Assembly: GCA_015233055.1 (NCBI GenBank)
Contig: JADFYN010000005.1
Location: 1-43,608, forward strand
Origin: Deltaproteobacteria bacterium
GTDB lineage: Bacteria; Desulfobacterota; JADFXK01
Reading direction: 5' to 3'
DNA length: 43,608 bases
The translations under genes and the position numbers were made by a program. Below the pieces are notes generated by a model, which ran no database searches, had not been told where the DNA came from, and worked only from the letters and a program-made list of their open reading frames with translations. Positions 37,428-39,493 of the stretch are shown piece after piece (position 1 is the first letter of the stretch; each line of letters starts with the position of its first letter).

Positions 37428-38549
37428 ATGTCGCGAGATTCATTTTTTGGGGAACAAACGGAGCAGTCACGTGTTAAGGCAAGGATTGTGTCTAAGTACT
37501 TCGGCGCCTGGGCTAATGTGATGATAGCTATTCGGAAACGTTACCCTAATAAATCACAGAAGATCGCCTACATCGATCTCTATGCCGGCCCGGGCCGTTA
37601 TGCTAATGGCAAACCATCAACCCCTATAAAAGTTATAGACATTGCCATGAATAAGCAGGACATTGCGGATCGCATAGTCTTTATCTTTAATGACATAGAC
37701 CTATCGAATTGCCGATCCCTTAAGAAAACAATCGAGGAACTGTCAGGAACCGACAAGCTAAAATACAAGCCAAAAGTGATAAACCAGGAAGTAGGCGAAG
37801 GGATCGTGAAGATGTTTGAGGAGACGCATCTTGTGCCCACACTACTCTTTGTCGATCCCTGGGGTTACAAAGGCTTATCTCTTCGTCTGGTCAACTCCGT
37901 TCTGAAAGACTGGGGGTGCGACTGTATTTTTTTCTTTAATTACAACCGCATTAACATGGGGTTGGCCAACCCGGTGGTCGAAGAACATTTGAACGCCATT
38001 TTTGGCGAGAACCGAGCCAAAGTTCTGAGGTCAAAATTGGGCGAGCTACAGCCCAGTGAACGTGAGCTGGTGATAATGGAAGAGTTATGCCAGGCTATTA
38101 AGGATATTAGAGGACACTATACATTTCATTTCGCTTTTAAAGATGAACGAAGTAAGCGAACAAGTCATCACCTCATTTTCGTCAGTAAGCACCGACGGGG
38201 ATACGAAATCATGAAAGATATTATGGCCCGCGAAAGCACAAGCCAAACTCAAGGTGTCCCTTCCTTTGAATGTAATCCCACCGATTCTCTGCCCCAGCAG
38301 CTATCTCTCTTTCCATTATCAAAACCGCTTGATGAACTTCAGGGCGCTTTACTTGAGTGTTTCAGTGGACAGACCTTGAAGGTGCGAGAGATTTATGAGC
38401 GACATAGCGAAAATACGCGCTATATTCTGAAGAATTACAAAGAGGCACTTCTGAAACTGGAAGGGCAGGGCAAAATCACCGCTGGTAAACACAGGAAAGG
38501 TACCTTTGGAGACAATGTTCTAGTTACTTTCCCTGGAAATAGAGGATAA
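37428..38549 (+). CDS. tcmP: three-Cys-motif partner protein TcmP (TIGR04474-like)
   Basis: AGGAGG Shine-Dalgarno. The N-terminus SRVKARIVSKYFGAWANV, then IDLYAGPGRY and LLFVDPWGY, match my recollection of the TcmP family. It is paired with a Gp37/Gp68 gene 3 nt downstream. The C-terminus (KNYKEALLKLEGQGKI) looks winged-helix-like. Confidence 0.75.
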   Translation: MSRDSFFGEQTEQSRVKARIVSKYFGAWANVMIAIRKRYPNKSQKIAYIDLYAGPGRYANGKPSTPIKVIDIAMNKQDIADRIVFIFNDIDLSNCRSLKKTIEELSGTDKLKYKPKVINQEVGEGIVKMFEETHLVPTLLFVDPWGYKGLSLRLVNSVLKDWGCDCIFFFNYNRINMGLANPVVEEHLNAIFGENRAKVLRSKLGELQPSERELVIMEELCQAIKDIRGHYTFHFAFKDERSKRTSHHLIFVSKHRRGYEIMKDIMARESTSQTQGVPSFECNPTDSLPQQLSLFPLSKPLDELQGALLECFSGQTLKVREIYERHSENTRYILKNYKEALLKLEGQGKITAGKHRKGTFGDNVLVTFPGNRG

Positions 38550-38552
38550 ATT

Positions 38553-39287
38553 ATGGGCCTGGGCACGAAAATAGAATGGACGGAAGCAACCTGGAATCCG
38601 GTCACGGGATGCACCAAGATTAGCGAGGGGTGCACTCATTGTTATGCGGAACGGATGTCCCGTCGGCTAAGACTGATGGGGCAACCTAACTACATCAATG
38701 GATTTGAACTCACGCTGCATCCGCATGTCCTCCCCATGCCGCTTAAGTGGCAGAAGCCGAAGTCCATTTTTGTGAACTCCATGAGCGATCTCTTTCATCG
38801 GGATATTCCCTTCGATTTTATTAGCCAGACGTTCGGAGTAATGGCCAAGGCATACTGGCATAGATTTCAAGTTCTGACCAAAAGGGCGGAACGGCTGGCC
38901 GAACTTGCCGGAACTCTTTTCTGGCCGGACAATGTTTGGATGGGCGTGACAGTCGAGCACAGTTCCCGGGTATCCCGAATTGATTATCTCAGAGAAGTGC
39001 CGGCTGCAGTGCGGTTTTTATCATTGGAGCCGCTGCTGGGGCCGTTGCCTGACCTGGACCTGGCCGGGATAGATTGGGTCATCCTGGGCGGAGAAAGCGG
39101 ACCGGGGGCCAGGCCGATGGAAAAATCCTGGGTGATCGATATTCAGGAGCAGTGCCATAGGGCCAACGTGCCGTTCTTCTTTAAACAGTGGGGAGGAACA
39201 TCAAAGAAGAGGGCTGGACGCCTCCTCTATGGCCGGACCTTTGATGAAATGCCTGGAAACCTGATAGCTCGCCGAAGGGAAGGATGA
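38553..39287 (+). CDS. phage Gp37/Gp68 family three-Cys protein (DUF5131, PF07505-like)
   Basis: [27 protein letters not shown] gives C-x6-C-x2-C. [15 protein letters not shown] and FFFKQWGG are also present. Confidence 0.88.
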   Translation: [244 protein letters not shown]

Positions 39288-39292
39288 GAAAC

Positions 39293-39493
39293 ATGACAAC
39301 AGTAAAAGTGCGAATGGTTGAGGTGATTCAGGAGCAGCCTGAAGACGCAACCTATGAGGAAATCCTGCGCGAGCTTGCTTTCGAGCGAATGGTTGACAGG
39401 GGTCTTCAAGACTCCAGAGCCGACCGGGTGATTATGAACGATGACATGGGGCGTAGAATTCGGGCGCTTTGGGCGGGGACGCACACATTCTGA
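39293..39493 (+). CDS. small hypothetical protein (66 aa; 69 aa if started at the ATGA overlap, 39284)
   Basis: It is coupled to the DUF5131 stop. GGAAGGA lies 8 nt upstream of the ATG at 39293. The sequence EDATYEEILRELAFERMVDRGLQDSRADRVI resembles small antitoxin-like or accessory helical proteins; this similarity is low-confidence. Confidence 0.55.
   Translation: MTTVKVRMVEVIQEQPEDATYEEILRELAFERMVDRGLQDSRADRVIMNDDMGRRIRALWAGTHTF

Follow-up and report, generated by a model that had tools for sequence, protein, structure and literature searches.

We analysed a window of 43,608 nucleotides (GCA_015233055.1, contig JADFYN010000005.1, positions 1-43,608) and found that the locus at 37428-39493 contains an intact two-gene cassette, of the type catalogued by PADLOC as PDC-M30, that encodes TcmP (a three-Cys-motif partner protein) and a DUF5131 (phage Gp37/Gp68) family protein. 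The cassette occupies a small variable spot in a housekeeping chromosomal region, and its host genome is Desulfobacterota-like. The unit consists of these two genes only; a third small gene immediately downstream is the orphan antitoxin of a deleted ParE toxin and is unrelated to the module. We put at roughly 45% the probability that TcmP and DUF5131 form a mobile cassette that uses S-adenosylmethionine (SAM) and radical-SAM chemistry to modify nucleic acid, probably DNA, in phage-host conflict; the substrate, chemistry and phenotype in this reading are what we infer from the features described here.

Three open reading frames (ORFs) are packed on the plus strand, on which all features of the locus lie. 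These are tcmP at 37428-38549 (373 amino acids), the DUF5131 gene at 38553-39287 (244 amino acids), and a third frame that opens at 39284 or 39293 and ends at 39493 (69 or 66 amino acids). The first two genes are separated by three nucleotides (38550-38552), and a GGAGGAG Shine-Dalgarno sequence at 37413-37419 precedes tcmP. An earlier sequence-only reading of the locus had reported the three packed genes, the 3-nt gap and the protein motifs discussed below, all of which can be read directly in the sequence.

TcmP is a bona fide member of TIGR04474 with a modelled class-I SAM-methyltransferase fold. It scores 198.8 bits against the TIGR04474 profile (cutoff 53), with residues 12-269 aligned to profile positions 1-262 of 263, and it matches the PADLOC model PDC-M30A over its full length (E-value 9e-28); its match to PDC-M41A is weak. 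The C-terminal part of the protein (38274-38480) is a GMT-like winged helix-turn-helix (wHTH) domain of family PF22560 (residues 283-351, E-value 4e-14, 53.2 bits against a cutoff of 27), and in the AlphaFold2 model the predicted local distance difference test (pLDDT) score is 84-94 over residues 301-370. Profile searches thereby bear out two proposals made from the letters alone, that the first gene is a TcmP and that it ends in a winged helix.

The TcmP model as a whole has a pLDDT of 75 and follows the beta-1 to beta-7 order of a class-I methyltransferase; a helical insert separates beta-5 from beta-6, and the C-terminal wHTH is well modelled. Foldseek searches of the PDB with this model returned SAM methyltransferases exclusively. 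The best matches were CmoA, RlmJ and MnmM, and TrmM was also found; the matches to CmoA, RlmJ, MnmM and COMT had E-values of 6e-5 to 1e-3, a probability of 1.0 and target template modelling scores of about 0.43-0.53. Against BFVD, the same model matched generic methyltransferases, none of them at E <= 1e-3.

Two motifs of TcmP have counterparts in methyltransferases. Motif I, YIDLYAGPGRY (residues 48-58, 37569-37601; the segment IDLYAGPGRY spans residues 49-58), follows strand beta-1 (residues 46-50 in the model) and is the predicted SAM-binding loop, as judged from conservation, hhalign and the model. A motif IV-like sequence, LLFVDPWGY (residues 139-147, 37842-37868), is placed by family conservation and the model after beta-4 (residues 137-141). 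We examined conservation in 65 divergent members of the family, which include long (364-431 amino acids) and short (273-325 amino acids) forms. D50, G54 and G56 are each kept in at least 88% of these proteins, and D143, P144 and G146 in 97%, 88% and 86%, respectively. K17 and Y24 in the N-terminal helix and F/Y52 are likewise conserved across long and short forms, and an acidic residue after beta-2 is retained in the sampled members. We infer that the conserved residues of motifs I and IV bind SAM. The resemblance to SAM methyltransferases that had been suspected from these motifs agrees with the Foldseek probability of 1.0 and with the family-wide retention of motif I and of a DPxG form of motif IV.

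The second gene (38553-39287) encodes a full-length member of PF07505, as the sequence-only reading had supposed. Its product scores 337.7 bits against this profile (gathering threshold 28.9, E-value 5e-101) and covers profile positions 2-243 of 243, and it matches PDC-M41B and PDC-M30B at E-values of about 1e-114 to 1e-118 (1.8e-114 for PDC-M30B). At 111 highly conserved columns the protein encoded in the window shows no deviation. It carries the three-Cys motif C20-x6-C27-x2-C30 (38610-38642), predicted to provide the ligands of a [4Fe-4S] cluster, and all three Cys residues are invariant in an alignment of 64 homologues, as is the sequence GGESG (residues 179-183, 39087-39101). We take GGESG to be a candidate for the 'GGE' SAM-binding motif of radical SAM enzymes.

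DUF5131 corresponds to Megacluster-5-2 in the RadicalSAM.org classification, which has the motif CX6CX2C and adjoins subgroups 5-1 (MJ0683-like) and 5-3 (spore photoproduct lyase; PMC9477430). The protein shows homology to the family TIGR04471 ('radical SAM mobile pair protein A', E-value 7e-25) but is not a member of it (87.7 bits against a cutoff of 355). The DUF5131 model has a pLDDT of 78.5 and consists of alternating beta and alpha elements, and its best Foldseek match in the PDB is spore photoproduct lyase, with weak E-values of 0.014-0.05, followed by generic TIM barrels. The three invariant Cys residues, the invariant GGESG and the spacing of Megacluster-5-2 are consistent with the earlier view of this partner as radical-SAM-like. 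The protein is probably a non-canonical enzyme of the radical SAM superfamily in the clade of spore photoproduct lyase, for which a [4Fe-4S] site and cleavage of SAM are predicted.

The association of the two genes is widespread. A pattern scan yielded at least 536 TcmP-encoding loci, of which the best 80 were compared. The TcmPs of these loci show 54-66% identity and represent more than 10 phyla, including Desulfobacterota, Cyanobacteria, Chloroflexota, Planctomycetota, Bacteroidota, Firmicutes, Nitrospirae, Latescibacterota, Deinococcales and others, and the closest TcmP to that of the window is 67% identical. A search of 1.84 billion representatives with the TcmP profile gave 3,597 clusters at 50% identity. 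DUF5131 adjoins TcmP in every one of the 80 genome loci, and the pair suggested by the window alone is thus syntenic in other genomes. The order TcmP-DUF5131 is co-directional in 41 loci, the genes being about -4 to +17 nt apart. DUF5131 comes first in three. The genes are convergent in 36, mostly in cyanobacteria, with 3' ends that overlap by 8-23 nt; examples are L040, L046 (10001-11128 and 11118-11894) and L048. A divergent pair is found on the Mycolicibacterium plasmid pMYCCH.02 (L182). Because convergent and divergent pairs exist, co-translation of tcmP and the DUF5131 gene is not required.

No third component is conserved among the 549 neighbouring ORFs of the 80 loci, where the recurrences reflect Nostocales synteny (ndhD, thrB). 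When 150 representatives of the neighbours were scanned with Pfam and PADLOC, they matched 155 Pfam families, mostly of housekeeping types, with a few Uma2, AAA_15/21, PIN, YhaV and toxin-antitoxin families; the scan had no background set, and we claim no enrichment of defence islands from it. Mean GC content in these loci lies below that of the flanks by 7.1% for TcmP and by 3.2% for DUF5131. Insertion sequence elements, an integrase and PIN genes lie near the pair in L014 and L015, and a gene set resembling type III restriction-modification, with an embedded ParE toxin-antitoxin pair, lies near TcmP and DUF5131 in L001, L003 and L004.

Some of these neighbourhoods have features of their own. 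Downstream of the pair, L001 (7567-13657) and L003 (11879-17137) encode an N6_N4 methyltransferase of 1016-1019 amino acids, an Unstab_antitox/ParE pair and a ResIII helicase of about 1000 amino acids. These Syntrophales-type loci resemble type III restriction-modification systems, and a DUF3644 gene (in L003) and unknown ORFs of 290-315 amino acids lie in between. ImmA/IrrE (Peptidase_M78) genes stand directly beside the pair in unrelated bacteria, in phages and on one plasmid (L003 6878-7954; L004 5196-6272; L025 8872-9954; L029; L030 7265-8341; L017 4418-4873; L018 3429-3854; L182 2360-3711). Their recurrence may reflect a shared regulatory or mobile-element context. In Sinorhizobium meliloti, an expression table lists the TcmP gene SMa2243 next to hna, SMa2245 (PMC12445080).

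The pair and its members also occur in viruses. Among the phage records of GenBank, 180 contain DUF5131, and at least 596 contigs of IMG/VR encode it as well. When the 80 closest viral DUF5131 loci were searched with an iterated hidden Markov model (HMM), 51 had an adjacent TcmP and 29 did not. A narrower HMM had found TcmP in only 16 of the 80, and the resulting view that most viral DUF5131 genes lack TcmP was discarded as an artefact of that model. The short TcmP form belongs to TIGR04474 proper. Temperate Gordonia phages have tcmP (annotated as 'methyltransferase') on the strand of the immunity repressor and 3 nt downstream of it; the gene is convergent with DUF5131 and located beside the integrase (L017 4992-6859). 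Synechococcus phage Ssp-JY39 carries a convergent pair beside Bet (L180 3492-5110), and Mycobacterium phage Typha carries a solo DUF5131 gene amid RecT, ParB-nuclease, HNH and RuvC genes.

On the Halopiger xanaduensis plasmid pHALXA02 (L181 3317-7107), TcmP occurs without DUF5131 and is located between two PF04055 radical SAM proteins. Both have the motif CX3CX2C, and their nearest NCBIfam models are PA0069, Rv2578c and rSAM_mob_pairB, all below cutoffs. The cassette is carried by chromosomes, plasmids, prophages and lytic phages, and it spreads horizontally. Near TcmP on plasmids we also observed a ThiF/E1-like adenylyltransferase gene (L181 9043-10701) and a gene for a Mov34/MPN (JAB) protein (L182 504-1049), which, by their product names, may be ubiquitin-like (Bil-type) defence genes.

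A close relative of the window locus provides a natural TcmP-minus version. This locus, L013, comes from the Deltaproteobacteria metagenome-assembled genome GCA_015233625.1, and its flanks align to the window at 90.5% and 92.9% nucleotide identity. Identity is 86.7% across DUF5131 and the antitoxin gene. The window segment that contains tcmP (37157-38542) corresponds to 549 nt in L013 (972-1520), which hold a YgiT-type zinc-finger ORF (TIGR03831; MqsA-like). The breakpoints fall in the AT-rich stretch upstream, where similarity ends at 37156, and within 10 nt of the start of DUF5131. The DUF5131 protein of L013 is 88% identical to that of the window and is its closest relative. A test for decay of this TcmP-less gene found no surplus of changes at its conserved columns. 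Relative to L013, the window carries the intact version of the pair. The differences between the two loci indicate that the interval is a small hotspot of gene flux. It collects toxin-antitoxin debris, which in L013 comprises the YgiT-type ORF, an antitoxin pseudogene and nine toxin codons, and where the window has 39466-39490, L013 (2444-3522) has two extra unknown ORFs of 69 and 157 amino acids. The synteny break, the 54-66% identity across more than 10 phyla and GC contents poorer than the flanks all agree with the horizontal acquisition that had been proposed for the module.

The third gene (39293-39493) lies outside the module and encodes an orphan ParE-associated antitoxin of 66 amino acids. 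It has 321 detectable homologues, mostly of 58-61 amino acids and 70-81% identical, in archaea and in Gamma- and Deltaproteobacteria. In loci L007-L010 the homologues lie directly upstream of, and overlap by 13 nt, a gene for a 98-amino-acid ParE toxin of family PF05016. DNA identity between the window and the ParE loci is 82% over 190 nt and stops at 39465, the expected start of the toxin gene, so that the breakpoint lies at 39465/39466 and the last eight residues (LWAGTHTF) form a novel, replaced tail. Searches with tblastn and three toxins found no remnant in 39200-40200 or in the rest of the window. The antitoxin gene of L013 has become a pseudogene through a TGA in frame at codon 7, and after it comes MAKIIW..., which represents the nine initial codons of the ParE toxin.

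The sequence-only reading had described a stop/start overlap between genes 2 and 3. The ATGA at 39284-39287 is indeed present; however, the alignment of homologues (MTTVKVRM... against MSSAKARM...) places the true start at the second ATG, at 39293, which is preceded by the purine-rich sequence GAAGGGAAGGA, and the two genes are separated by 5 nt rather than overlapping. Its further suggestion, that a coupled third gene belongs to the module as a regulator or antidote, fails on the pairing with ParE elsewhere. An HMM of the antitoxin family found nothing in the 80 genome loci, in the 80 viral loci or in seven other loci that carry the pair, and the 80 genome loci have no third gene in common.

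How the two proteins might act together can be outlined as follows. With its C-terminal wHTH, TcmP would bind nucleic acid (DNA most likely), and it would present a flipped-out base in an RlmJ-like SAM-binding pocket formed by motif I (DxF/YAGxG) and motif IV (DPxG). DUF5131, with a putative [4Fe-4S] cluster held by CX6CX2C, would carry out 5'-deoxyadenosyl-radical chemistry on the flipped base or on the product of TcmP, and the outcome would be a covalent modification of the nucleic acid. The most likely role appears to be to mark or alter DNA in conflicts between phage and host, whether for defence or for protection against restriction, because the cassette is self-contained, is spread horizontally, and is found on chromosomes, plasmids, prophages and lytic phages.

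Within this arrangement, TcmP seems to play an accessory part, directing the radical enzyme's activity or extending it, since TcmP is tied to a radical SAM protein of the spore photoproduct lyase clade and DUF5131 is able to exist alone. The tolerance of any gene orientation, together with the occurrence of TcmP with canonical radical SAM proteins resembling spore photoproduct lyase, also argues that TcmP is accessory to a radical enzyme of that type. DUF5131 appears to have some TcmP-independent activity, because L013 and about one third of the viral genes keep it without TcmP.

Several observations weigh against a DNA-modifying cassette in phage-host conflict. PDC-M30, whose A and B models are matched by the adjacent genes of the window, is a non-validated 'guilt-by-embedding' candidate (PMC10855318), and our literature search found no experiment on DUF5131, TcmP or PDC-M30/M41 and no functional study under COG1533 or Rv2578c. 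The earlier statement that the pair has no experimentally assigned function therefore stands, and its guess at a defence role stands in part, in that PADLOC already lists the pair as PDC-M30/M41 but as an unvalidated candidate. Neighbours in the window and in many of the 80 loci are of housekeeping rather than defence-island types. Similarity of TcmP to RlmJ (PF04378) in hhalign, for which the RlmJ query was checked to be identical to 4blu_A, is a weak match confined to 22 columns at motif I (probability 10.9%, E-value 0.0028). Pfam gives no RlmJ match in TcmP, and searches of the PDB with single proteins and profiles gave no match for either gene.

On the side of the partner, DUF5131 has no PF04055 (Radical_SAM) match at E <= 0.1, its motif is CX6CX2C rather than CX3CX2C, and it has no structural match in the PDB at E <= 1e-3. 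The structural check of its radical SAM character was mixed: spore photoproduct lyase was the best match, but at an E-value of 0.014, and the Cys loop (residues 21-51) is unmodelled, with pLDDT below 50, in the cofactor-free model. The apparently constrained DUF5131 of L013 and the one third of viral DUF5131 genes that lack TcmP point in the same direction. Finally, RNA or small molecules are the substrates of RlmJ, CmoA and MnmM, so the substrate of the cassette could be RNA.

Among other explanations, the one that comes nearest is that the pair is an anti-phage effector, in which TcmP would be the targeting subunit and invading nucleic acid would be sensed or attacked by radical damage, by a blocking modification of phage DNA or by abortive infection. 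We consider this unlikely but not negligible. The listing as PDC-M30/M41 speaks for it, as does the finding that 68.8% of 32 PDC-M30-bearing Pseudomonas aeruginosa strains fell into phage-resistant groups in a 100-strain panel (PMC10855318). The position in Gordonia prophages is typical of lysogen-expressed defence genes, the TcmP gene of S. meliloti adjoins Hna in the table cited above, toxin-antitoxin, PIN, Uma2 and AAA_15/21 genes occur in some neighbourhoods, and the convergent, independently transcribed layout is like that of restriction-modification gene pairs. However, the PDC-M30/M41 candidate has never been validated, and the pair has no recognizable nuclease or killing domain. Phages themselves carry the pair, and also DUF5131 on its own, in some cases in lytic DNA-metabolism modules, and the neighbours in the 80 loci are mostly housekeeping genes (a tally made without a background comparison). 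Because L013 keeps DUF5131 without TcmP and without decay, neither gene looks like a toxin or antidote partner of the other. Nor is restriction-modification indicated, as there is no nuclease domain in the three window genes and no conserved third gene in the 80 loci.

Repair of DNA is a more doubtful alternative, under which DUF5131 would reverse a lesion in the manner of spore photoproduct lyase, with TcmP responsible for lesion recognition and base flipping. It draws on the best structural match and on the adjacent radical-SAM subgroup, on the ability of TcmP to pair with PA0069/Rv2578c-type radical SAM proteins, and on the solo DUF5131 amid the RecT, ParB-nuclease, HNH and RuvC genes of the mycobacteriophage. 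That structural match is weak (E-value 0.014), however, repair genes are usually inherited vertically rather than as GC-atypical cassettes across phyla at 55-66% identity, and the conserved SAM-methyltransferase motifs of TcmP suggest catalysis and not mere recognition. Slightly less probable still is modification of rRNA or tRNA by an RlmJ-like TcmP and an RNA-modifying radical SAM enzyme. The best structural matches of TcmP (RlmJ, CmoA, MnmM and TrmM) are RNA-pathway enzymes, but the resemblance to RlmJ is at the level of the fold only, a wHTH suits DNA binding better, the closest characterized relative of DUF5131 acts on DNA, and the pair is patchily distributed, mobile and carried by phages. 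The proposal of a three-gene module, with the 66-amino-acid protein as regulator or antidote of TcmP and DUF5131, is effectively refuted. The 5-nt spacing of genes 2 and 3 on the same strand and their adjacency in L013 would fit it; against these stand the ParE partners of the homologues, their absence from 80 genome loci, 80 viral loci and seven other loci with the pair, the pseudogene beside an intact DUF5131 in L013, and a similarity breakpoint exactly at the start of the lost toxin.

A mobile cassette for nucleic-acid modification thus remains our preferred reading, and it would bear on more than this locus. DUF5131 makes up an entire radical-SAM subgroup, and TcmP is spread over bacteria, archaea and phages. 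A new DNA modification or radical-based defence, if true, would represent new enzymology in phage-host conflict and possibly a DNA-modifying tool. More speculatively, TcmP and a radical SAM protein resembling spore photoproduct lyase (DUF5131, or a PA0069-type protein in some archaea) might constitute an undescribed two-component class of radical-SAM-dependent DNA base modification. In that case TcmP would pick out the base and flip it, the radical enzyme would add or convert a modification other than methyl, and both phages and cells could use the result as an epigenetic shield or weapon.

The surroundings of the cassette in the window can be described briefly. A lineage-specific region (37157-37427) lies upstream, with the left synteny breakpoint at 37156/37157, and contains the Shine-Dalgarno sequence and an AT-rich stretch of 25% GC at 37175-37250. 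The GC content of tcmP is 0.448, within the lowest 6.5% of 1.1-kb windows, and its GC content at third codon positions (GC3) is 0.479 compared with 0.58-0.73 in flanking genes; the AT-rich intergenic stretch and the GC-poor TcmP of the sequence-only reading are both confirmed by these values. The GC3 difference between tcmP and DUF5131 (-0.125), at about the 9th percentile of the 80 loci, is weak evidence that the two genes were acquired separately. A scan for promoters and terminators found sites no more numerous than in shuffled sequence. Genes around the pair are of housekeeping types and encode SLT, GATase, 3-hydroxyacyl-CoA dehydrogenase (3HCDH), a PAS-HisKA kinase, a ClpX-like AAA+ protein and a radical-SAM/SPASM protein. 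Ahead of the genes for the last two, at 39589-40066, are ORFs of 73 amino acids (with a CxxC motif) and 88 amino acids, neither with a Pfam family, in a stretch shared with L013 (92.9% nucleotide identity over 39491-43173). Far from the cassette, a 378-amino-acid ORF on the minus strand (19753-20889) contains many tandem Trp-rich 'AEWNAKWEE..K..QQ' repeats and a C terminus, 'ELDIIIKNG...IIIEIKS', that by eye is PD-(D/E)xK-like. This repeat-rich ORF explains the extreme skew in GC and AT at 20001-21000.

The TIGR04474 and PF07505 pair (PDC-M30/M41) is already catalogued, and the window locus adds another member, with adjacent genes and a long TcmP that carries a wHTH like PDC-M30A. It differs in that its neighbourhood is of a housekeeping kind and not a defence island, and in the toxin-antitoxin relic attached to it. 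The relic itself compares with type II toxin-antitoxin systems of the ParE/RelE type: gene 3 is 70-81% identical to antitoxins located directly upstream of PF05016 toxins, but it has no toxin gene and its last eight residues are exchanged.

TcmP is most readily compared with RlmJ, the 23S rRNA m6A2030 methyltransferase (PDB 4blu, 6qdx). Both have the class-I fold, motif I reads YIDLYAGPGRY in TcmP and YLDTHAGAGRY in RlmJ, and after beta-4 both have DPxx followed by an aromatic residue (DPWGY in TcmP, DPPYE in the 4blu sequence). A conserved Lys and aromatic residues of the N-terminal helix contribute to the pocket of RlmJ, and by analogy K17 and Y24 of TcmP might do the same. In contrast to RlmJ, a vertically inherited housekeeping enzyme, TcmP adds a wHTH and always has a radical-SAM partner, and outside motif I there is no significant sequence-profile similarity between the two.

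For DUF5131, the nearest known systems are spore photoproduct lyase (COG1533), PA0069/Rv2578c and TIGR04470/04471, which belong to the same megacluster (5), with spore photoproduct lyase as the best structural match. DUF5131 is shorter (244 against 340 amino acids), has CX6CX2C instead of CX3CX2C, and falls below the cutoff of each of these families. Radical-SAM chemistry in phage-host conflict, both phage- and host-borne, has precedents in the prokaryotic viperins and in 7-deazaguanine (Dpd) DNA modification, which depends on QueE, itself a radical SAM enzyme. The products of viperins are chain-terminating nucleotides and Dpd relies on a transglycosylase, whereas the partner in the TcmP/DUF5131 cassette is a methyltransferase-fold protein with a wHTH; the likeness to these systems is one of general comparison, in which homology is not expected.

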